From Vibrio alginolyticus NBRC 15630 = ATCC 17749 (GTDB taxonomy: Bacteria > Pseudomonadota > Gammaproteobacteria > Enterobacterales > Vibrionaceae), in contig NC_022349.1 of assembly GCF_000354175.2 (NCBI RefSeq), positions 930,001 through 962,000 on the forward strand: a stretch of 32,000 nt of DNA. The letters are read 5' to 3'. Numbering within the stretch: the first letter of the stretch is position 1; each line of letters opens with the position of its first letter. The notes beneath the pieces were generated by a model, which was not told the origin of the DNA, did not search any database, and was given only the letters and a program-made list of their open reading frames with translations. This document shows, in pieces, positions 9,445 to 32,000 of the stretch. Both the position numbers and the translations under genes were made by a program.

Positions 9445-11065
9445 GTGAGAGGAGGCTTCAGATTGCTGCCACAACTCAATAAGCTCACCGAAGATCCCGG
9501 TGCGATGTTTTACTGCCCTGATCTCATCATCAAAGCCGCGAATTATGATCTAATCCAACAGCCCAATAATGTTGTTTTACTCGATACCATCGCCCAAGCT
9601 TATTCCGCAAATAGTAAGTTCGATGAATCAGCAAAAGTTCGAAGCAAATTCCTAATACTCGCTCGTAACGATTACGAACGCGCTAGTGCCCATTTCGACC
9701 GAGGCATGGCATTCACATTTGCAGGGAAACATGACGACGCTATTTCAGATTACACCCAAGCTATCCGAGTCATCCCATCGGCTGCGCTTTATGCCAACCG
9801 CGCCAGCAGTTACGCCAGTATAGGCAATTTAACTTCATCAATAACCGACTACACAACTGCTCTTTCAATGTCAGATACCGGAAGTGACAGCTATAATCGT
9901 CATCTCCTTTATCGTGCACAAGTTCTGACAAAAGCTGGACAATTTCCTGAAGCGATCACGGACTACCGGAGATTGATTGCGATAGCACCAAGTAATGTTG
10001 AAGCACGCAAGGCTCTCATTCTCGTGCTTGCAGATTCTGGAAAACTGGATGAGGCAAATATCAGTCTCATCGAATTTAAAGAAAAATTTCTAGAGGACTT
10101 CAAACAATTCAGGTCAAAACTGGTCAGAATTCCTACGTTAGCCGACCAATCGGGAATCTCTGCCTCCAACCGCCTCAAACCGCGTCTGGAGGCAAAAGGA
10201 GAGCGAGCATTGTTGCACCAAATCAAAGAACTTGTACGTGGTGGCAAGTGGATCATGTATGGTAAGAACCGTATAGAATATAAAGCCAGCCCTGCGACAT
10301 TGCGTCCCGCCCTATCAGGTCATCTTCAGATCGTTAACGTGACTTGCGTCAGCGATGGCCCTCAAAGTGACCTCCATCCTGTTACGAAAGGAGAGCGCCT
10401 TATTAAAGGATGTCCGAAAGACCTGCGACAATGGAATGTTTCAAACCTAATGGTCGATCTTTTAAAAGCAGACCCATTCTCACTTGATATTATTGAACCG
10501 ACTTCAACAATTTCTGTAGGTGAAGGAGCCATTCTTCAGTTTGGCTACACTAAGGATAAAGAGAAAATAGGATGGCGCGATTGTATTGACGATGGCATTT
10601 TTAGCTATCAGGCTTCAGGAGAGGAAACGCGACGAGGACTTATTCCACCAGGACTGTTCTGTAAGGGGCAAGCGAATTGCAGGCAAGTTAAAGCACTACT
10701 TTCCGATCTCATCAAACGGGTTCAGAGAGCTAACCCAGAGTCCGCTCCTTCCTATTGGGATACACTCGGGTATCAGATCAATCAGCGCTTGTGGATACCT
10801 GAACGATCTGGGAGCAATCAAAGAAGACGGAAGCGAAGACAAGACCACAATGGCAAACTTATTTGCTTCCCGTGGATATGGTTTAGGGCTTATAGAACGC
10901 TATAATGCCTCTCTTGCTGATTTGAATAAGGCGATTGCACTCGATCCGACTAAAGCCGTATACTTTGATGTTCGTGCTATCGCAGCTGACCATCTAGGGA
11001 AGTCGGAGCAAGCTTATAAGGATCGTGAAACAGCCTGCTCTCTAGAAAAAAAACACTGCAAATAG
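9445..11065 (+). pseudogene. TPR-repeat protein, apparently disrupted by a +1 frame change near 10780-10800
   Basis: The 486-aa ORF (TPR repeats such as AISDYTQAIRVIPSAALYANRASSY) ends in an implausible basic tail (SNQRRRKRRQDHNGK...). The overlapping +1-frame ORF (10586-11065) carries a further TPR-like unit, ANLFASRGYGLGLIERYNASLADLNKAIALDP. The true start may be the TTG at 9463 after GAGGAGG. Confidence 0.5.
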
Positions 11066-12058: not shown

Positions 12059-12202
12059 AATAACGTGATACAAATCACATTTAAAAGTTATTTTCCGGTG
12101 TAACCCCAAATGTCACCCCAACCTAGGGCAAAATTTATTTTATTCATATAAAACAAAAACTTGAACAAAAAACCAGAATCCCTCTTAAATGCTTTGTTAT
12201 GG
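12059..12202 (-). repeat. Decayed terminal attC (R''/L'' end intact, R' end lost)
   Basis: The right end GAATCCCTCTTAAATGCTTTGTTATGG is canonical. Leftwards only patchy similarity remains (CTTGAACAAAAAACCA versus CTTGAGCTGAAAATGCCA), the AGCGTTGG arm is missing, and no TAACGCC box is present. Confidence 0.5.
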
Positions 12203-12679
12203 CGATGAACTCAAAGTTAGCTCTTGTATATCAATTTGGTCTACTTCCCTACCCAATATCCGCTTGTACTCGACTAAACGATTAACTGGGATGACTGGCA
12301 ACTCGATACCTTGATAATCTTTAAGAACTGATTCTGAAAAGTAGATTTCAAGCTGGTGCCAAGAACCATCTTGACGTGATTGTATCTTCGTATGTTGAGA
12401 CAAACCGATTTCAATTTTTTGACTTTGGTAAACCAACTGGAAATACTCTAAATCCCAACCATATTCGGCATAATGATCTAACGGCTTTGATATGTATTTT
12501 GCTACATGCGATAACACCTTGTCTGCGTCAGAGTTATGAATATAAAGATCTATATCTGCGATTTCCCGACTACCACCATGAATGGTTGCCGCTAACCCAC
12601 CGACTATTTGATACTCCACATCCTCTGCATCCAAGATTTCTTTGAGCCACTGCAAGGCTACTTTAACTTTATCACTCAT
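12197..12679 (-). CDS. Pol-beta-superfamily nucleotidyltransferase (small-molecule NTase-like)
   Basis: The N-terminal minimal NTase motif is VGGLAATIHGGSREIADIDLYI (GG...DxD). ATG follows AAGGGA. The TAA stop lies in the attC R'' box. Confidence 0.7.
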   Translation of the reverse strand: MSDKVKVALQWLKEILDAEDVEYQIVGGLAATIHGGSREIADIDLYIHNSDADKVLSHVAKYISKPLDHYAEYGWDLEYFQLVYQSQKIEIGLSQHTKIQSRQDGSWHQLEIYFSESVLKDYQGIELPVIPVNRLVEYKRILGREVDQIDIQELTLSSSP

Positions 12680-13466: not shown

Positions 13467-13862
13467 CTATGCACTGAACTCTTCTAATGCTGAAACTGCC
13501 GCTTCTGCTTTACCACTTTGAACAAAGATATGGTCGTGATAATAAGCTGCAATGACATTAGCACTAATACCCTTTGATGCTAACTTGCTAGCCACTGCTG
13601 CTGTAAGACCTACAGCTTCCAAACTGGAGTGCACCGTCAGAGTTATTTGACTATATGTACCATCAAACGACAAACCTGCCTTTTCTGCCGCTGATTTCTC
13701 TAGAACCAAAGTTAAACCCTCAGATTCAATAAACGTGGCAACTGGATTTAGGTCAACATAGTCTGCTAGCACACCAGAAACTGTACAAAACACAAACTCT
13801 GATTCCATTAGTTTTGGACTCATCGAACGCAATAATTCGTCTAGGTCTGTGATACCTGACAT
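13467..13862 (-). CDS. ACT-domain-like small protein (hypothetical)
   Basis: 131 aa. ATG follows AAGAGGAAA. The C-terminal half (ITLTVHSSLEAVGLTAAVASKLASKGISANVIAAYYHDHIFV) resembles an ACT ligand-binding fold. Confidence 0.6.
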   Translation of the reverse strand: MSGITDLDELLRSMSPKLMESEFVFCTVSGVLADYVDLNPVATFIESEGLTLVLEKSAAEKAGLSFDGTYSQITLTVHSSLEAVGLTAAVASKLASKGISANVIAAYYHDHIFVQSGKAEAAVSALEEFSA

Positions 13863-14459: not shown

Positions 14460-14471
14460 GTGACTCCGAAA

Positions 14472-14599
14472 ACCTAACGCCGCATTAAGGTGTGAGCAAC
14501 GCTACCACCAGACGAAACCTGTACGCCTTAAACACGAAACCCAACGATGACATAAAAAATGCCAAGCGTTGGGAATCACTCTTAAATGCCTTGTTAGTT
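14472..14599 (-). repeat. attC site 4 (class A)
   Basis: CCTAACGCCGCATTAAGGTGTGAGCAACGC...GCCAAGCGTTGGGAATCACTCTTAAATGCCTTGTTAGT. Confidence 0.9.
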
Positions 14600-14803
14600 T
14601 TTTGTTTCTAGAGAGTGCTTATTTTCCAAGTCTTCTACCTTATTTTTAAGTTTCTCTAACTTTCGAGAATAAATAAAGAAACCGATTTGAGAACATACTA
14701 CGGCCACATAGAACAGGTTATCTCTATGTTGAGCTGGAGCATCATTCCACAACCATATAGCGAAGACAGTGACAAGCACATAAGAAATAATATTTGAAAT
14801 CAT
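14594..14803 (-). CDS. Small two-TM membrane protein with a C-terminal coiled-coil-like tail (69 aa); second gene of a two-gene cassette
   Basis: Two hydrophobic helices (ISYVLVTVFAIWLW and FYVAVVCSQIGFFIY), then KLEKLKNKVEDLENK. Its ATG overlaps the upstream TGA (ATGA coupling). The TAA stop lies in attC R''. Confidence 0.55.
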   Translation of the reverse strand: MISNIISYVLVTVFAIWLWNDAPAQHRDNLFYVAVVCSQIGFFIYSRKLEKLKNKVEDLENKHSLETKN

Positions 14804-15354
14804 TGATGAAGCCCCGAAACCAATCGTACACTTCGATTTTCTAACTCTGTATTAACTTTTTTTAATTCAGACTTATTAAACGCAACAGATCCCCAAATGA
14901 CAAGCATAGCTAAACCACCTCTGCCAAGTTTACCTCTAGCTTTAGATTCCTTGTATAGGTCTTTGAGTCCAAGGCTTGAAGCACCAATACCTATATAACT
15001 AGCGAAATTGTCTAAAAAGCTATGAAAATCTTTATCAGACTGTAACTCTTTCTCAGTCATTGACCACATGCCATATTGTGGGTTAACAAAAGTAGTGTCT
15101 AGCGCTCCTGTTACTAGTTTTCCCATTAAGGCTCTATTCGAAACACTTCGTATCAGTTTCATAGCATCTACTCGTTGCTTCTGACTGAGATGTCTATACA
15201 AGATCATCGAACAAATCGCATCTACTTCTACTTTTCCAGTCCCAACAAGTAGTTCTGGTTTAAAACCGATTATTTTAGCTAATATTCTTAATTGTTCTTG
15301 CTCATGGCTTGGCAAATTATACGGTAAACTGCTAACTGAAATTACGTTACTCAT
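14800..15354 (-). CDS. Hypothetical protein (184 aa) with one C-terminal hydrophobic helix; first gene of a two-gene cassette
   Basis: The ORF fills the cassette. ATG at 15354 (the track start 15357 is a GTG). GGLAMLVIWGSVAF is a TM-like segment. I recognise no family. Confidence 0.6.
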   Translation of the reverse strand: MSNVISVSSLPYNLPSHEQEQLRILAKIIGFKPELLVGTGKVEVDAICSMILYRHLSQKQRVDAMKLIRSVSNRALMGKLVTGALDTTFVNPQYGMWSMTEKELQSDKDFHSFLDNFASYIGIGASSLGLKDLYKESKARGKLGRGGLAMLVIWGSVAFNKSELKKVNTELENRSVRLVSGLHQ

Positions 15355-15440
15355 CACTCATCCATGTATAATTTTAGGGCTTATTTTATGAAGTAAAAAG
15401 AACAACATATGCACTCAGTGGCGTATAGAAAATGTTATGA

Positions 15441-15567
15441 AACTAACGCCCTGTTAAGGGGTGAGCAACGCAATACTGAAGCCGCCGCATACCACCTTAA
15501 ACACTAAAAACCAACGCATAGCAAAAATGCCACGCGTTGCGAATCCCTCTTGAACAGTTTGTTAACT
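15441..15567 (-). repeat. attC site 5 (class B)
   Basis: ACTAACGCCCTGTTAAGGGGTGAGCAACGCAATACTGAAGCCGCCGCATACCACC...GCCACGCGTTGCGAATCCCTCTTGAACAGTTTGTTAAC. Confidence 0.9.
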
Positions 15568-15908
15568 GAGCGCCTTTCAGTTTTCGCCGATCTTTCAGCC
15601 ACTTTCGCCAAAGCTCGTTTTGCTAATTAATGATTAGCAAAGCTAACTCAAATATGTATTTAACCAAAAAATTACCGTTTATCTTTAGTTTGAAATGCGT
15701 CTCACAACACCATACTTCGGCGATGTAAGTGCGCCGAACTAATCGCGAATGCCTTATATTATTAGAAGGCTTTGTGCCGCCTTTCACATCAGTAAACTTA
15801 AGTATCAAACTGAAATTAGTCGCATTAGCTCAGCTAAGGAAACCGACCGAACACGTTAAATCTCTGAACCGAGAAACTGTATCATTGTGCTTTCGTATTT
15901 TCTGCGCC
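15568..15908. other. ORF-less integron cassette (341 bp)
   Basis: The only ORFs are 61 codons on each strand, TTG-initiated, without an RBS. Contains the long hairpin AGCT..TTGCTAAT-TAATG-ATTAGCAA-AGCT (15612-15644) and repeated CTTTCAG/TTTCGCC motifs. Confidence 0.6.
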
Positions 15909-16104: not shown

Positions 16105-16662
16105 ATGGCGGTTACTTTGGTTAGCGAAATACCTGAAGGTGCATTAGATACGCCTTATCGTAGAAATAAATACATCTGTGACCATATTTATGTAGCTTAC
16201 TCCCCGTCTATAGATGTCTTTAAAATAGGGATTACAAAGAACCCTAGGCATAGACTGTCTAACATGAAGTCTGTAGGTATTGGTGGTGTTAAGGATTGGG
16301 AATTTCACTGCGCTTACAAAGTGGGCGTACAAACTGCTCATAGCTATGAAGTCAGCATATCTCGTCAGCTCTATTGCTTTAATATTGAGCTTAACTATCT
16401 AAATAAAACCTCTGCAGACTACTCCCGAGAACTTTACAAGTGTGACATTAAGATAATCAAAGCTGCTTTTAAAAGTGTTGGTGTAATCATTCCGATCTCA
16501 AGCGAAGTGCTTCGGAAAAAATTTGTTGAGTTCGTTCCACAAACAAACTTTTTGAAATGGGTAAACTTAAATAGGGAGAATGTTGGCTTAAGCGCTATGA
16601 CGATGTTAGAACTCGAAAACTCTAAATTTTACACCATTCCCAATACTGCAAATTTTAGTTGA
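16105..16662 (+). CDS. T5orf172 / GIY-YIG-like domain protein, encoded antisense to the array
   Basis: HIYVAYSPSIDVFKIGITKNPRHRLSNM...SYEVSISRQL...SRELYKCD resembles the T5orf172 pattern (YV.....KIG.T.....R...L). It is the only credible cassette ORF on the + strand. Confidence 0.6.
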   Translation: MAVTLVSEIPEGALDTPYRRNKYICDHIYVAYSPSIDVFKIGITKNPRHRLSNMKSVGIGGVKDWEFHCAYKVGVQTAHSYEVSISRQLYCFNIELNYLNKTSADYSRELYKCDIKIIKAAFKSVGVIIPISSEVLRKKFVEFVPQTNFLKWVNLNRENVGLSAMTMLELENSKFYTIPNTANFS

Positions 16663-18335: not shown

Positions 18336-18466
18336 TACTAACGCCGCGTTAAGGGGTGAACAACGCGATGCCACCCAACTTAAACCATTGTGCCATAAAC
18401 ACAAAAGCTAAGCTTTGAACCAAAACTGCCATGCGTTGAGAATCCCTCTTAAACGCTTTGTTATGT
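18336..18466 (-). repeat. attC site 9 (class A)
   Basis: ACTAACGCCGCGTTAAGGGGTGAACAACGC...GCCATGCGTTGAGAATCCCTCTTAAACGCTTTGTTATG. Confidence 0.9.
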
Positions 18467-18471
18467 GCGTA

Positions 18472-18918
18472 CTAAAGTTGTACGTACAATCTCAGCATGT
18501 CTTTGTGTTGAATACCATTTTCATAGATTGGCTCTGGATAATTCAGCAAAAAGTAATCTTTGACGATTGAGTCAACCCGAAAGCCAAGACGCTGATAATA
18601 AGTCAGTTGATAGCCAAAGGTGCCTGTACCCAGTTCAACACGTGAGATTCCCTTACTTGATAACTGAGACAGAACCGACTTAAGCAATTCAGAACCAACA
18701 CCTTGACCTTGTAACTTTGGATATACAGAGACATTGAATATCTCAGCAAGACTATTGGTTTGTAGCTTCACTATGCAAGCAGCTAAAACACGCCCATTAT
18801 CTAGTGCAGCGAAGCACCATGAATCGGATAAATATGAAGAAACACTCGCTTCAGAAGGATCGGCTTCAAGCAGCAAATCTAGCGGAATCTGGCTACTTTT
18901 GACTTCGATATATTGCAT
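18472..18918 (-). CDS. GNAT family N-acetyltransferase (148 aa), paralogue 1
   Basis: Motif A VYPKLQGQGVGSELLKSVL. ATG at 18918 follows GGAGG. The track's N-terminal extension reads through attC 10. Confidence 0.8.
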   Translation of the reverse strand: MQYIEVKSSQIPLDLLLEADPSEASVSSYLSDSWCFAALDNGRVLAACIVKLQTNSLAEIFNVSVYPKLQGQGVGSELLKSVLSQLSSKGISRVELGTGTFGYQLTYYQRLGFRVDSIVKDYFLLNYPEPIYENGIQHKDMLRLYVQL

Positions 18919-20519: not shown

Positions 20520-20648
20520 GCCTAACGCCCAATTAAGGGGTGAACAACGCCTCCACCCAAACCTAAGGGATTGTGCCATAAACACTAAAACTGAAGTAGA
20601 AGCTAAAGTGCCAAGCGTTGTGAATCCCTCTTAAATTGCTTGTTATGT
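20520..20648 (-). repeat. attC site 12 (class A; paralogous to attC 9)
   Basis: CCTAACGCCCAATTAAGGGGTGAACAACGC...ATTGTGCCATAAACAC...GCCAAGCGTTGTGAATCCCTCTTAAATTGCTTGTTATG. Confidence 0.9.
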
Positions 20649-20653
20649 GCGTG

Positions 20654-21100
20654 CTAAATCTGTGCGTACAATCTCAGCATGTCTTTGTGTTGAATACCAT
20701 TTTCATAGATTGGCTCTGGGTAATTCAGTAAGAAGTGATCCTTGATGATCGAGTCAACACGAAAACCAAGGCGCTGATAATAAGTCAGTTGATAACCAAA
20801 GGTACCTGTACCCAATTCAACACGAGTGATTCCCTTACTTGGTAGCTGAGACAGAACTGACTTGAGTAATTGAGATCCAATTCCTTGACTTTGTAGCTCG
20901 GGATATACCGAAACATTGAAGATTTCAGCAAGGTTTTGGGGTTCAGGCTTCACTATACATGCCGCCAAAATACGCTCATTATCTAGCGCAGCAAAGCACC
21001 ATGATTCTGATAAATATGATGAAACACTCGCCTTAGAAGGATCTGCTTCGAGCAGCAAATCTAGCGGAATTTGGCTACTTTTAACTTCGATAAATTGCAT
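20654..21100 (-). CDS. GNAT family N-acetyltransferase (148 aa), paralogue 2
   Basis: By my count it differs from the 18472-18918 product at 20 of 148 residues. ATG at 21100 follows GGAGG. The track's N-terminus reads through attC 13. Confidence 0.8.
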   Translation of the reverse strand: MQFIEVKSSQIPLDLLLEADPSKASVSSYLSESWCFAALDNERILAACIVKPEPQNLAEIFNVSVYPELQSQGIGSQLLKSVLSQLPSKGITRVELGTGTFGYQLTYYQRLGFRVDSIIKDHFLLNYPEPIYENGIQHKDMLRLYAQI

Positions 21101-22903: not shown

Positions 22904-23467
22904 TAATTGCTGAACAATAGCGATGTTTTTTTCAGGTATTACAATGACTCGATTATAAGTAGACTTGTCCTTAGATAAAAAAACCAACTTTCCATCCCTA
23001 TACTTTACAACAATACCATTGAGACACTGTTGATCAGATAGTTTACAGACTTGCGTATTTGCCTCAGATTTTAAATGTTGATCTGATAGTTCGTTCGCAT
23101 CATTTACCACAGGTACGAAAGCAACAAATAAGACAGGAAGTAAGCCAATTAGAATGTAAGGCAAACTTTGCAAGTCTAAATAGGAACCAACCCAATTAGC
23201 TTTAGCCGTTATAAACCTTTTCAGAGGTATATAGCCACAACCAATTAACGCACCAACAAGCATAAAAAATGCGAGACCTGAAGAGAAATTGAAAAACAGA
23301 TACATGCCACCGATAGACAGGTATTCCAAAGAGTCGCCAATCATTTCATAGTGAGCAAATCCTAGTTTTTCTAGAAAAGCAGCATCATATAAAAAACCGA
23401 TTACATATGCTGTAGTTACCATTAGGGACAAGATCCCTACAACTACTTTAGTCAAAACTTTCTCCAT
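22898..23467 (-). CDS. Hypothetical polytopic membrane protein with a C-terminal CX6C soluble domain (189 aa)
   Basis: About four hydrophobic helices, then ...VCKLSDQQCLNGIVVKYRDGKLVFLSK. ATG start. The TAA stop lies in attC R''. Confidence 0.6.
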   Translation of the reverse strand: MEKVLTKVVVGILSLMVTTAYVIGFLYDAAFLEKLGFAHYEMIGDSLEYLSIGGMYLFFNFSSGLAFFMLVGALIGCGYIPLKRFITAKANWVGSYLDLQSLPYILIGLLPVLFVAFVPVVNDANELSDQHLKSEANTQVCKLSDQQCLNGIVVKYRDGKLVFLSKDKSTYNRVIVIPEKNIAIVQQLS

Positions 23468-23469
23468 TA

Positions 23470-23566
23470 AGCTAACGCCGCATTAAGGTGTGAGCGGCGC
23501 TTGGCTATACTTGAGCGAAGCGAAACTGCCAAGCGTTGCGAATCACTCTTAAATGCTTTGTTATAT
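23470..23566 (-). repeat. attC site 16 (class C, short)
   Basis: GCTAACGCCGCATTAAGGTGTGAGCGGCGCTTGGCTATACTTGAGCGAAGCGAAACTGCCAAGCGTTGCGAATCACTCTTAAATGCTTTGTTATA. Confidence 0.9.
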
Positions 23567-24243
23567 TTTTTTATCCGCAGACTTCAAAAATAGTCGTTCG
23601 TACAGCCCGTCAGGCTTTGACACGACAACTGAACTGGCGAGGCTTTCTATCTTGATGATCTCTGTTTGGTGGTCATCATAGTTATATACCGCGCACAAAG
23701 ATGTAATACTCGAACATGTTAGTATGCTCAATTCACTATCACCTAGTTGATACACAATTTCTTTTTTATATCTTCCAGCTTATCAAATGCAAACCATGAT
23801 CCTAAAAATCCGTAAACTAGAGCCAACAAGAATAAAAACATTAAGTTGTTAATGACAAAGTCCAGTGTTTCTGAAAATTCACTAACTTTTTGAGGCGTCA
23901 CAGGCTTAGAAGTTGCTCCCTCGTTGTTCCAAGCTTTCGCGGCTTCATTGTAAAAATCTGGCATTAACTTCCGAACAGTTATAACAATTAATCTAAATAA
24001 CTGCTTAGTGAGAGATCTCAACAACCATAAAATTGGAATTAAAAAAGCAATAGCCCATAAACCATACGTATAAAATGGTGCGAAGCCGATCTGTAAAAGC
24101 TGAGGGGTGTCTTTAGGCAAAAAAGATGAGCTAAGACCAAGTGTCCTTAACCAAGATATGTAGTAGGTATTTCCGAGAATATAAAGAACACCTGTACCTG
24201 CAGCTAGCCAGACTGCCACATCTCTAAGTATATGTTTATTCAT
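23561..24243 (-). pseudogene. Distant paralogue of the neighbouring membrane/CX6C protein, split into 166-aa and 64-aa ORFs at an A-run (frameshift, or -1 programmed frameshift)
   Basis: The 166-aa ORF holds the membrane domain (LYILGNTYYISWLRTLGL versus AYVIGFLYDAAFLEKLGF). The 64-aa ORF in the -1 frame holds the CX6C domain (TCSSITSLCAVYNY). The junction ...GAT ATA AAA AAG AAA... carries A_AAA_AAG at 23767-23761. Confidence 0.5.
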
Positions 24244-24258
24244 GGAACCACCTCAAAA

Positions 24259-24355
24259 ATATAACGCCGCATTAAGGTGTGAGCAGCGCTTGGCTATACT
24301 TGAGCGAAGCGAAAACGCCAAGCGTTGCGAATCACTCTTAAATGCTTTGTTAGGG
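24259..24355 (-). repeat. attC site 17 (class C, short)
   Basis: ATATAACGCCGCATTAAGGTGTGAGCAGCGCTTGGCTATACTTGAGCGAAGCGAAAACGCCAAGCGTTGCGAATCACTCTTAAATGCTTTGTTAGG. Confidence 0.9.
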
Positions 24356-25999: not shown

Positions 26000-26015
26000 T
26001 ATTAACGTTCCTTGA

Positions 26016-26141
26016 ACATAACGCCCTGCTAAGGGGTGAGCAACGCAATACAAAAGCCGCCGCAAACCACCTTAATCACTAAGTTCAACGCATAGTAAAA
26101 ATGCCACGCGTTGCGAATCCCTCTTGAGCAGTTTGTTAGTC
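26016..26141 (-). repeat. attC site 20 (class B; near-identical to attC 26)
   Basis: ACATAACGCCCTGCTAAGGGGTGAGCAACGCAATACAAAAGCCGCCGCAAACCACC...GCCACGCGTTGCGAATCCCTCTTGAGCAGTTTGTTAGT. Confidence 0.9.
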
Positions 26142-26635
26142 GCGAGGCACCGAGCGACAATTTTAAGCCGAACTAAACTGTGCGAACAACAAACTTTATG
26201 TGCTTTGATGCATTTAAGTCAGGCGTAGTCTCAAAGCGGCTACTCAATGAAACCACTTAGAACAAACAACGCCGTAGAAAACGGACTGACAACACCAAAA
26301 AGCGCTTTTGGAAAGCCAATCTCACAGTACGGACTTTCAACAAAGTCACTGAAACCACGTGGAACTTACCACACCAGAGAGAGCGTCATTTCAGCGAGTA
26401 AATCGGCTTTTGTACCAACAAACTCACCGAGCGGAGTTGCAACCAAAAACAAACTCTCGATTGCCCTGCTCTGTCAGCACCAAAGAACAAAACAATCGCT
26501 AGGACACTTGCAAAATTTTGGACTCAAAACAGCTAAAACTAAGTTCTAAAGATCGACGATGAATCTGTGTTCCAAACAAACTGCTGCTAAATTTTAAGCT
26601 CAGAAACATGATTTTAATTGCTAGCTTTTTCTGGC
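26142..26635. other. ORF-less integron cassette, copy A of a paralogous pair (494 bp)
   Basis: Aligns along its length with 29461-29954. The 100-codon + strand ORF here is destroyed in copy B by a 1-nt indel. No minus-strand ORF is shared. Contains the conserved palindrome AAAAGCGCTTTT (26298-26309). Confidence 0.65.
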
Positions 26636-29320: not shown

Positions 29321-29334
29321 AATTCCCTCCTAGA

Positions 29335-29460
29335 GCATAACGCCCTGCTAAGGGGTGAGCAACGCAATACCGAAGCCGCCGCTTACCACCTTAATCACTA
29401 AATTCAACGCATGGTGAAAATGCCACGCGTTGCGAATCCCTCTTGAGCAGTTTGTTAGTC
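29335..29460 (-). repeat. attC site 26 (class B; near-identical to attC 20)
   Basis: AGCATAACGCCCTGCTAAGGGGTGAGCAACGCAATACCGAAGCCGCCGCTTACCACC...GCCACGCGTTGCGAATCCCTCTTGAGCAGTTTGTTAGT. Confidence 0.9.
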
Positions 29461-29954
29461 GCGAGGCACCGAGCGACAATTTTAAGCCGAACTAAACTTT
29501 GCGAACAACAAACTTTATGTGTTTTGATGCACTTAAGTCAGGCGTAGTCTCAAAGCGGCTATTCAATGAAACCACTTGGAACAGCCAACGCCGCAGAAAA
29601 CGAACTGACAACACCAAAAAAGCGCTTTTGGAAAACCAATCTCACAGTGCGGACTTTCAACAAAGTCACTGAAACCACGTGGAACTTACAACACCAGAGA
29701 AAACGTCCTTTCAGCAATTAAATAAGCTTTTAAACCAACCAACTCACCGAGCAGATTTGCAACCAAAAACAGATTTTCGATTGCCCCGCTCTATCACCAC
29801 CAAAGAACGAAACAACCGCTTGGAAAATAGCAATGCATTGATTTAGAACCGATGAAACTGAGCTTTGACCGTCGAAGATGGAACTATGAATCAAACAACC
29901 AGTAGCCAAGTTTTGAGCTTAGAAACATGATTTTGACTTCTAGCTTTTTCTGGC
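29461..29954. other. ORF-less integron cassette, copy B of the paralogous pair (494 bp)
   Basis: No ORF of 60 codons or more on either strand. Collinear with 26142-26635. Both ends and the AAAAGCGCTTTT palindrome (29618-29629) are conserved, while the segment at about 29810-29900 has diverged. Confidence 0.65.
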
Positions 29955-30662: not shown

Positions 30663-30788
30663 TCCTAACGCCCAATTAAGGTGTGAAGCACGCGACCACG
30701 GTACTTCATTTGACCACCGTACACACTGAACTAAACCCAAACCAAAACTGCCAAGCGTGCTGAATCACTCTTAAATTGTTTGTTAGGC
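30663..30788 (-). repeat. attC site 28 (class A, divergent)
   Basis: CTCCTAACGCCCAATTAAGGTGTGAAGCACGC...GCCAAGCGTGCTGAATCACTCTTAAATTGTTTGTTAGG. Confidence 0.85.
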
Positions 30789-31517
30789 GCTCAGGAGCTT
30801 GAGTTTACCTGCTAGCTGCTCTCTCAAAGTTTGAAGGCCCTCACCGTTGTTTAAATAGATCAGAGCTCTGTGATGAATCATATCGGACGGAATGTCGCTT
30901 ACATTTTGTGCTATTGGGACGACTGTTTTACCGAGGGTATGAGCAATACCTGTTTCATACATAACATTCGGGTTTTTATTGGAAAAGTCTACCACCACAA
31001 TTTTTGCACGGTAGATAAGACTAAATATATCCTGGATTATGGACGAGTGTTTCCATATATCGTCAGCTCGTAGACATCTAAGCGTTGCATCTTCTGTTGC
31101 GCCTTTGATCGCGTCATAAACACTACTAAAACCAGCAAAAGGCATCATAACCGCTACTAAATCATCTTCCACGTCACTATCCGGTATTGAAAACACATTT
31201 GGTGAAAACGTAATTTTCCTCTCAGACGGTTTGGCAGAAATGTATGTAGCGCTTTGATCAGGATACCATTCATTTAAGTAAGCCTCGGTTTCTTTTAGGG
31301 CATTTGCATTGTGATCAACCATAGAGCGTAAAACGCTAATAATACACCCGCTATAGTCTTCATCACCAAAATGTAGACTACGCAATAACCTTGAATGATG
31401 TTCGATAAGGTGTGTGCAGTCAGTTATCAAACCTAACTCGATCCAGTTTTCAGCAGTAAAATTTTCTAAAATTCTTCGTTTTAACTGCAAAATCATTTGT
31501 GTATTTATATCTTTCAC
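30783..31517 (-). CDS. Two-domain hypothetical protein: N-terminal helical domain plus C-terminal nucleoside 2-deoxyribosyltransferase/TIR-like (Rossmannoid) domain (244 aa)
   Basis: The C-terminal DLVAVMMPFAGFSSVYDAIKGA...LRADDIW...IYRAKIVVVDFSNKNPNVMYETGIAHTLGKTVVPI matches the MPF...D...NVxYE.G.A pattern of NDT/TIR-like domains. GTG start at 31517 (alternative ATG at 31496). Confidence 0.55.
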   Translation of the reverse strand: MKDINTQMILQLKRRILENFTAENWIELGLITDCTHLIEHHSRLLRSLHFGDEDYSGCIISVLRSMVDHNANALKETEAYLNEWYPDQSATYISAKPSERKITFSPNVFSIPDSDVEDDLVAVMMPFAGFSSVYDAIKGATEDATLRCLRADDIWKHSSIIQDIFSLIYRAKIVVVDFSNKNPNVMYETGIAHTLGKTVVPIAQNVSDIPSDMIHHRALIYLNNGEGLQTLREQLAGKLKLLSA

Positions 31518-31542: not shown

Positions 31543-31668
31543 GCCTAACGCCCTGTTAAGGTGTGAGCAACGCAATACAAAAGCCGCCGCATACCACCTT
31601 AAACACTAAAACCAACGCATAGTGAAAATGCCACGCGTTGCGAATCACTCTTAAACAGTTTGTTAGCC
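31543..31668 (-). repeat. attC site 29 (class B)
   Basis: CGCCTAACGCCCTGTTAAGGTGTGAGCAACGCAATACAAAAGCCGCCGC...GCCACGCGTTGCGAATCACTCTTAAACAGTTTGTTAGC. Confidence 0.9.
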
Positions 31669-32000
31669 AAAATGGGCTTCTCTATGACAATTGGGACACA
31701 GAGCAATAGCATTCTCTACAGTATCATCTCCTCCTTTCGCTAAAGGGACAATATGGTGCACTTCAAGGTATGGGCTCCTATCTTTTTTACGTTGGAATGG
31801 AGCTTTTTTACTGCAACCCTCACAGTATTCCCCTGCTCTTACTAATACTTCAGCTACTACATCAGGGTTTCGTTTGAATTTTGTAACCAACTCCAATACA
31901 AATTGAGGTTTTTTATTAGCTTTAGCTAAGCGTTTTCTCCTAGCTTCGGAGCTTGTGCTAAGTGAGTTCTTAATTTTTTCGTCAAAGTCATTCTGCTCAC
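31663..32000 (-). CDS. HNH endonuclease (C-terminal part; the N-terminus lies beyond the window end)
   Basis: CEGCSKKAPFQRKKDRSPYLEVHHIVPLAKGGDDTVENAIALCPNCHREAHFG is an HNH/His-Me finger with flanking Cys pairs. The frame stays open upstream to base 32000 (...EQNDFDEKIKNSLSTSSEARRKRLAKANKKPQFV...). The track start at 31896 is an internal TTG. Confidence 0.8.
   Translation of the reverse strand, partial: EQNDFDEKIKNSLSTSSEARRKRLAKANKKPQFVLELVTKFKRNPDVVAEVLVRAGEYCEGCSKKAPFQRKKDRSPYLEVHHIVPLAKGGDDTVENAIALCPNCHREAHFG

Follow-up and report, generated by a model that had tools for sequence, protein, structure and literature searches.

What might two tightly coupled genes of no recognised family be doing together in a single integron cassette? 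The question is raised by a locus in Vibrio alginolyticus NBRC 15630 = ATCC 17749, within a stretch of 32,000 nucleotides (NC_022349.1, positions 930,001 to 962,000) that we refer to in its entirety as the window, where a large gene specifying a protein of 184 residues is followed by a small gene specifying one of 69 residues. Our analysis indicates that this cassette probably encodes an antibacterial effector-immunity pair of the polymorphic-toxin or type VI secretion system (T6SS) kind, and that the large protein is most likely a member of an undescribed all-alpha toxin family.

The cassette and its two products

The window holds the distal part of a sedentary chromosomal integron of the Vibrio type. 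An nhmmer model made from the window's own repeats finds 30 attC matches, all in a single orientation and spread over the window from about 12.2 kb to its end. A single cassette of 969 bp on the minus strand (15446-14478), flanked by two attC sites, contains the pair; its features in the direction of transcription are the following.

15437..15568, minus strand: upstream attC, the 3' end of the preceding cassette (nhmmer E 3.5e-40; repeat families D1-D3)
15355..15446, minus strand: 5' leader of the cassette, about 90 nt, with a Shine-Dalgarno-like GGAxGAG motif directly 5' of the ATG
14800..15354, minus strand: large gene, 184 amino acids, putative antibacterial effector (ATG at 15354, TGA at 14802-14800)
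14594..14803, minus strand: small gene, 69 amino acids, putative immunity protein (ATG at 14803-14801, TAA at 14596-14594)
14467..14602, minus strand: the cassette's own attC (nhmmer E 8.4e-33; repeat family D4)

Read from the sequence, the upstream attC has the R' core GTTAGTT at 15447-15441, with the recombination point at G15447|T15446, and the cassette's own attC has the R' core GTTAGGT at 14478-14472, the cassette ending at G14478; the TAA that ends the small gene falls within the start of the latter site and overlaps its R'' (TAAC). Both open reading frames (ORFs) lie between GTTRRRY cores inside the attC array, which places them in an integron cassette. The stop of the large gene and the start of the small one share the four nucleotides ATGA at 14803-14800, an arrangement that links the two genes by translational coupling and that the original prediction had located exactly. 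An alternative GTG start at 15357 would give a large protein of 185 residues, and the homologues begin at the ATG.

Neither protein matches anything beyond noise in Pfam, NCBIfam, PADLOC or PHROGs, in agreement with the initial view that neither family is a recognisable one, and literature searches for the locus tags N646_0849 and N646_0850 and the protein accession AGV16684 found no paper. The large protein carries the conserved motifs LPY (10-12), ILYRHL (51-56), NPQ(W/Y)GxWS (91-98), E103, GxGAS (122-126), LVIWG (151-155), E170 and R174, of which YRH, NPxWGxWS, E103, G122, E170 and R174 are conserved in two of our alignments (A1 and A3). Across 97 diverse representatives (alignment A4) only W94, W97 and E103 are near-invariant, which argues for a structural or membrane-interfacial role of these residues rather than for a conserved catalytic centre, although an enzymatic activity on a membrane-embedded substrate would be the alternative that is left. 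An AlphaFold2 model built from 28 homologues (pLDDT, the predicted local distance difference test score, 77; pTM, the predicted template modelling score, 0.67) shows an all-alpha fold of eight helices, of which the last two long ones (101-127 and 145-173) bear the small-residue-rich stretches YIGIGASSLG and GGLAMLVIWGSVAF. A Foldseek search with this model, as had been proposed when the pair was first noticed, returned nothing under an E value of about 2 from PDB and BFVD, and the family profile matched PDB sequences only at the level of noise (E >= 0.26). The single hydrophobic C-terminal helix ascribed to the protein at that time corresponds to a real hydrophobic segment, but one that falls short of a transmembrane (TM) helix and is better seen as part of a weak helical hairpin, the weakly hydrophobic helices near the C-terminus spanning residues ~117-131 and 146-159. 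It is plausible from these features that the large protein is membrane-associated.

The small protein is, as predicted, a two-TM protein with a charged tail: hydropathy gives two clear hydrophobic helices at about residues 1-19 and 28-46, followed by the charged C-terminal tail. Its short acidic loop bears a W-x-W-(N/E) motif, and LFY opens the second TM helix; across the aligned relatives these motifs read W-x-W-(E/D), at the end of the first TM helix, and (L/I)F(Y/W). In an alignment of 16 small proteins a single W column and a single F column are invariant. The cytoplasmic tail ranges in length across relatives from about 5 to 25 residues, so that it is the TM hairpin with its loop of about ten residues that makes up the conserved functional part. 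The protein is predicted to be a membrane hairpin with both termini in the cytoplasm (N-in/C-in), and its basic tail (SRKLEKLKNK) obeys the positive-inside rule. A sequence search with the small protein returned near-identical copies only.

Homologues linked to type VI secretion and Rhs proteins

For two remote but full-length homologues of the large protein, P0095 and P0114, the gene is preceded at a distance of 12 nt by a complete hcp (PF05638). P0095 has 28% identity to the window protein over residues 3-175 (E 2e-20, the value also obtained with the family profile), and P0114 is matched by the family profile at 2.5e-16. The P0095 gene is followed at its locus (L036) by a gene for a protein of 71 amino acids with two TM helices and a charged tail, and the P0114 gene (L034) by a gene for a membrane protein of 100 amino acids and then one for a Sel1 lipoprotein. 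A third protein, P0145, joins residues 1-72 of an Hcp (PF05638, 44.5 bits) to the last ~100 residues of an effector like P0095, its two parts sharing 62.5% identity with Hcp and 63% with P0095, respectively; it is seen on three contigs, and a two-TM gene of 73 codons follows with a 4-nt overlap. This chimera looks, from the sequences, like an hcp-effector module that has lost an internal segment, and the small gene downstream of it is intact.

L032 8001-8513: hcp::effector chimera, downstream small TM gene intact
L033 1178-1690: hcp::effector chimera, downstream small TM gene intact

An independent link is provided by P0032, whose N-terminus is the end of an Rhs core (TIGR03696, 36.2 bits against a cut-off of 32.5), reading ...NPYSYVMNNPLAGIDPTGY and ending in DPTGY. 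A linker of about 90 residues separates the core end from the family domain, which forms the C-terminal domain (CT) of the protein, and downstream the small two-TM gene is present as two paralogues in tandem. The gene upstream is divergent, and we therefore read this locus, from its gene order, as an orphan Rhs-CT/immunity module. Other remote members, P0166 and P0177, have an N-terminal PG_binding_1 hit, over the Pfam cut-off in the former and just under it in the latter. The family domain is thus Rhs-linked in one case, accompanied by PG_binding_1 in two and stand-alone elsewhere, as would be expected of the C-terminal domain of a polymorphic toxin.

At four remote loci the toxin gene is paired with one for a Sel1-repeat protein, which bears a signal peptide, a lipobox or an anchor in the membrane at its N-terminus; the two genes are convergent at three of these loci and co-directional at the fourth.

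L020 9268-9834: Sel1-paired locus
L029 4453-5139: Sel1-paired locus
L030 9099-9713: Sel1-paired locus
L034 10887-11495: Sel1-paired locus

The Sel1 protein may serve in the periplasm as an immunity protein, either in place of the small one or in addition to it. The PG_binding_1 hits and the exported Sel1 partners of these remote members together point to action from the side of the periplasm.

The same PG_binding_1 hits bring to mind a lysis cassette, in which the large protein would be a cell-wall hydrolase and the small one a class-II-like holin: PG_binding_1 is common in the architecture of endolysins, and two TM helices with a charged C-terminus are generic features of holins. We consider this highly improbable. 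Phage, IMG/VR and BFVD collections hold no homologues, the confidently modelled N-terminal part of the large protein has no hydrolase fold, be it of the lysozyme, the transglycosylase or another type, the wide family shares no conserved catalytic set, and the gene order is opposite to that usual for holin and endolysin.

Several observations weigh against an effector-immunity pair delivered by a T6SS. The flanks fetched for the window copy and for its close relatives contain no hcp, vgrG, PAAR or other T6SS gene, and a tblastn search with Hcp across the fetched loci gave matches only at L032-L036. The proposed T6SS link rests on homologues of about 25-28% identity, and 155 representatives yield only one Rhs fusion cluster and one Hcp chimera. 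Neither a T6SS marker domain nor a signal peptide was recognised in the large protein. Its hydrophobic segment (residues 146-159) is some 14 residues long with a 15-mer Kyte-Doolittle mean of 1.49, under the usual TM threshold, and the PDB and BFVD searches revealed no likeness to a colicin pore domain and no other structural neighbour, so that membrane disruption is proposed by analogy only. Lastly, a promoter scan found no sigma-70 consensus promoter upstream of the window pair on the minus strand, and the cassette sits far into the array, with >17 kb between it and the window's upstream end; for these two reasons the pair may be silent or poorly expressed in this genome.

Conservation, distribution and orientation of the pair

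Homologues of the large protein form 28 clusters at 90% identity, and an exhaustive profile search extends the family to 155 representatives (50% identity) at E<=1e-3; a third homologue search, with a wide alignment, added little among the at most 8000 candidates that it covered. At all 16 other distinct loci of close relatives, which are 42-78% identical to the window's large protein, a co-oriented two-TM ORF of 55-72 codons lies directly downstream, its start falling between -8 and +3 nt of the large-gene stop (the spacing is unmeasurable at one locus, L013, where the large gene is frameshifted). These loci come from Agarivorans, Pseudoalteromonas, V. cincinnatiensis, V. maritimus, V. parahaemolyticus, five Photobacterium species, Moritella, two Marinobacteraceae, an uncultured gammaproteobacterium, a sediment metagenome contig and the Rhs-linked metagenome contig, and so represent nine named genera besides uncultured samples. 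A DNA-pattern scan of metagenomes added four further loci, with the small ORF directly 3' in each and with no evidence of fusions, one of the four being cut at a contig edge so that its N-terminus is off the contig. The pairing of the two genes is thus far beyond chance; taken with the two-TM ORF found in the same layout after the hcp-linked members, this is the adjacency and co-inheritance expected of an immunity gene. Across 11 loci the mean identity is 46% for the large proteins and 30% for the small ones, which therefore diverge faster, and the identities of the two are correlated (Pearson r 0.68, uncorrected for phylogeny).

The exact sequences of 184 and 69 amino acids are present in V. 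alginolyticus genomes, and the clusters of both proteins at 90% identity span V. parahaemolyticus, V. diabolicus and V. cincinnatiensis. Public annotation often starts the large gene at an internal codon, which gives 157 residues, despite an intact 184-codon ORF (for example L021-L023 3001-3680), and often leaves the small ORF uncalled (for example L001 5546-5764). Many members of the cluster at 90% identity are annotated with 157, 108 or 86 residues and could be mistaken for decaying toxins, an idea we rejected: the DNA of one such V. parahaemolyticus locus holds intact ORFs for the 184- and 69-residue proteins, and the short annotated forms are therefore choices of start codon. A real frameshift was seen only in Photobacterium marinum (L013 6001-6718), where the large gene is shifted in a poly-A tract, LVIWG becoming FVILR, and the small gene is intact; this is either decay of the toxin with retention of immunity or a homopolymer sequencing error. 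A protein of about 170-200 amino acids with a signal peptide is encoded right after the small gene in two Marinobacteraceae (L014 6724-7320 and L015 2889-3458) and in Pseudoalteromonas (L003 5736-6254). We rejected a conserved third gene, since these proteins are homologous only between the two Marinobacteraceae loci (E 4e-21) and not to that of Pseudoalteromonas, which leaves the third gene outside the system.

Close relatives are integron cassettes in V. alginolyticus, V. parahaemolyticus, V. cincinnatiensis and Photobacterium, and many homologues lie outside integrons in ordinary chromosomal contexts; the Agarivorans copy is near a DDE transposase, and that of the uncultured gammaproteobacterium lies between purF and putP. 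These settings bear on the first of the two functions suggested for the pair from the sequence of the window, an abortive-infection or phage-defence module in which infection would lead a sensor or effector, together with a small membrane protein, to collapse the membrane, in the manner of RexAB or Sucellos. Small defence systems abound in chromosomal integrons, and among them are two-gene cassettes in which one partner forms pores in the membrane (bioRxiv 10.1101/2024.07.02.601686); the present pair is compact, translationally coupled, inclusive of a membrane protein and housed in the same array as an AbiJ_NTD5 cassette. However, neither protein has a match in PADLOC, where no family was hit at E<=10, or in PHROGs, RexA, RexB and other Pfam domains are lacking, and the family has no copies in phage, plasmid or IMG/VR collections. 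No defence genes were called near homologues at the two loci whose neighbours were examined. Homologues instead adjoin hcp or join an Rhs core, and some occupy plain chromosomal contexts such as that between purF and putP. We therefore regard a defence role as unlikely and favour the second suggestion, that of a toxin and its immunity protein, which the hcp-adjacent homologues and the Rhs C-terminal domain support.

The ordinary metabolic surroundings of some close homologues would also suit a non-toxic membrane complex of two subunits, a tail-anchored protein and a small partner, that was captured by integrons by chance and whose association with hcp and Rhs is coincidental. Toxicity is so far a deduction, and the full-length ORF is intact in many strains of V. 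parahaemolyticus, V. alginolyticus and V. diabolicus. Nevertheless, such a coincidence would have to account for three independent links to T6SS or Rhs delivery, for the tandem duplication of the small gene after the Rhs-CT, for a patchy, island-like and cassette-borne distribution in both orientations, and for the fast divergence of the small partner, and we think it very unlikely.

With regard to orientation, the window pair is co-oriented with its attC sites, whereas attC sequences read at L005, L006 and L011 (V. cincinnatiensis) and at L007 (Photobacterium alginatilyticum) place the pair between attC sites in the inverted sense. The occurrence of both orientations means either that a cassette formed around the pair on more than one occasion or that the pair has flipped, and the inverted copies, which oppose attC, must use a promoter of their own. 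Promoter scans found no consensus promoter upstream of the inverted copies; by eye, a perfect -10 TATAAT with a weak -35 precedes the inverted V. cincinnatiensis copy, which is weak evidence. Inverted cassettes with their own promoter are typical of toxin-antitoxin (TA) cassettes, and for this reason a secondary role as an addiction module for the array is possible.

As the sole explanation, an intracellular TA module would have the membrane toxin act in the producer, with the small protein as antitoxin and stabilisation of the array as the outcome. It would fit the inverted pairs of V. cincinnatiensis and P. alginatilyticum and the TATAAT upstream of the former, and TA cassettes are known to stabilise sedentary integrons (bioRxiv 10.1101/2024.07.02.601686). 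Yet a toxin-first order and a two-TM 'antitoxin' devoid of a DNA-binding domain are atypical of type II TA systems, and no TA domain from Pfam or NCBIfam was found, the small protein being a two-TM hairpin. Moreover, many homologues are not part of integrons, the links to hcp and Rhs indicate toxins that are delivered, and the PG-binding and periplasmic Sel1 partners of remote members indicate action from the periplasm. Addiction alone thus seems improbable to us, although it is compatible with, and need not exclude, an effector-immunity pair.

Proposed mode of action, known analogues and the surrounding array

From the observations above we infer toxicity, a secretion route in this strain, a membrane target and a mechanism of immunity as follows. 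The protein of about 20 kDa would be carried by the T6SS into a neighbouring cell's periplasm, with Hcp presumably serving as the carrier for the hcp-linked members. Small Hcp-dependent effectors travel in the lumen of Hcp, and about 20 kDa is within the size range of such cargo. The C-terminal helical hairpin, weakly hydrophobic and rich in small residues, would then enter the inner membrane and disrupt it through a pore, an ion leak or depolarisation. In the inner membrane of the producer and its siblings, the 69-residue hairpin might neutralise the inserted toxin laterally by means of its periplasm-proximal W-x-W-E...LFY face; neutralisation within the membrane would fit the finding that only the TM hairpin and the short loop of the small protein are conserved. 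Given that hcp, vgrG and PAAR are absent from the flanks and that the locations vary, the window pair and its close relatives would be orphan operons, and orphan effector-immunity operons are a known category in V. parahaemolyticus (PMC9765294). The window pair would then be an orphan effector-immunity module packed as an integron cassette, and such packaging would let Vibrio shuffle and exchange pairs of weapon and antidote.

The closest functional analogue, in our view, is Tme/Tmi, the membrane-disrupting T6SS effector-immunity pairs of V. parahaemolyticus described by Fridman et al. 2020 (PMC7046647). For the toxic domain of Tme a single TM helix is predicted, which often falls below the threshold, and the domain acts from the periplasmic side without causing lysis (PMC7046647). 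The two systems have in common a small membrane immunity protein encoded downstream and a sub-threshold helix, and Tme genes, too, often form orphan operons, near mobile elements. However, the hallmark of Tme, a near-invariant DxxK with a TM helix and a flanking D, is not kept here: a K-D-L-x-K is partly conserved and no D follows the helix (alignments A1 and A3). Tmi is DUF1240-like, whereas the small protein of the window has no DUF1240 match in a Pfam scan at E<=10, and the Tme family has ~2,000 members, with fusions to T6SS markers, as against a family roughly ten times smaller, of 155 representatives, that lacks marker-domain fusions. We therefore rejected assignment to the Tme family on motif and immunity type, the pair being set apart from Tme on the basis of the published description.

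The order hcp, effector and small, often unannotated, TM immunity gene seen at L034-L036 is also that of the DUF4225/Imm4225 pairs in Hcp auxiliary modules of V. parahaemolyticus (Jana et al. 2022, PMC9765294), but neither DUF4225 nor another Pfam domain is found in the large protein or in the 97 representatives, and the window copy is not beside hcp. Orphan Rhs-CT/RhsI modules and polymorphic toxin systems (Zhang et al. 2012, PMC3482391) resemble the P0032 locus, with its domain after the core end (DPxGY) and its immunity genes downstream and duplicated in tandem, and they include stand-alone forms; the window protein differs in having its own start and no Rhs, PAAR or pre-toxin region, and only one cluster of its family is Rhs-linked. 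Sucellos, a RexAB-like system from a V. cholerae integron (bioRxiv 10.1101/2024.07.02.601686), is likewise a two-gene cassette with one membrane partner and acts against phage, but the window pair has no RexA, RexB or PADLOC match and its family is linked to hcp and Rhs, not to defence islands. Two further candidates were discarded: WHIX, a T6SS secretion domain of ~450 amino acids, on grounds of size and motif, and VP14460-VP14465, a DNase pair that is unrelated.

Pore-forming colicins and ionophoric CdiA-CT toxins combine an all-alpha domain of ~180-200 residues and a C-terminal hydrophobic hairpin with a small polytopic inner-membrane immunity protein that acts within the bilayer. The window pair follows a common logic and has no similarity to them in sequence or fold (no Foldseek hit in PDB below E 2.5 and no PDB profile hit below E 0.26); in particular, its model does not show the ten-helix globin-like bundle with a buried hydrophobic hairpin of the colicin pore-forming fold.

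If these proposals are correct, the T6SS repertoire of marine bacteria would gain a new effector family and a minimal family of intramembrane immunity proteins of 55-72 residues. Integron cassettes would carry complete modules of weapon and antidote, linking integron shuffling to the turnover of T6SS effectors, and the pair suggests that integrons can also move interbacterial weapons. A literature search found no paper on T6SS effector-immunity pairs as integron cassettes. Tentatively, and with less assurance than we have in the pair itself, we propose that sedentary chromosomal integrons supply weapons for conflict between bacteria in addition to means of phage defence, this cassette being a mobile, attC-borne T6SS effector-immunity module of an undescribed effector family, with a new fold and a new form of intramembrane immunity that is carried in both orientations by several Vibrionaceae. 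What is new here is the effector family and the little-documented link between integrons and weaponry; effector-immunity pairs are already known as a type of system. Surveys of genomes for such pairs would miss the family, because the small gene often goes unannotated and the large one is, in many GenBank records, annotated from an internal start. A toxin of 20 kDa with an antidote of 69 residues would be an attractive minimal system for the study of immunity against membrane-inserted toxins.

As for the remainder of the array, its ORFs lie mostly on the minus strand, and its products include GNAT acetyltransferases, APH-type kinases and ACT, DJ-1, NTP_transf_6, ankyrin, AbiJ_NTD5 and HNH proteins. 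Three genes of the array have functions of the defence or mobile-element type.

30783-31517: AbiJ_NTD5 protein
31663-31896: small HNH endonuclease
16105-16662: T5orf172 (GIY-YIG-like) protein, opposite to the array strand

The initial impression that nearly all cassettes here hold a single gene is roughly right, but at least one more holds two ORFs: the cassette at 23465-24355 has minus-strand ORFs at 24243-23743 and 23755-23561, overlapping by 13 nt, for a protein of 166 amino acids with several hydrophobic helices and one of 64, neither of which has a Pfam match. It could be a second compact two-gene membrane module. Segments of the array are duplicated at 87-94% identity (26009-26513 with 29328-29833, and 18417-18716 with 20599-20898), and the duplicated segments include GNAT acetyltransferase paralogues. 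The final attC match is a 29-nt fragment at 12176-12204, and none lies further toward position 1, so that the array seems to end there; beyond it are chromosomal genes that are not in cassettes, including one for a TPR protein of 486 amino acids at 9445-10905. Lastly, an ACT-domain cassette two positions downstream of the pair (13467-13862, minus strand) is 60% identical (E 8e-60) to L003 4532-4924, the ACT gene immediately upstream of the homologous pair in Pseudoalteromonas, a locus at which no attC repeats were detected. This suggests either that the ACT gene and the pair have travelled together or that the Pseudoalteromonas region is built of former cassettes.

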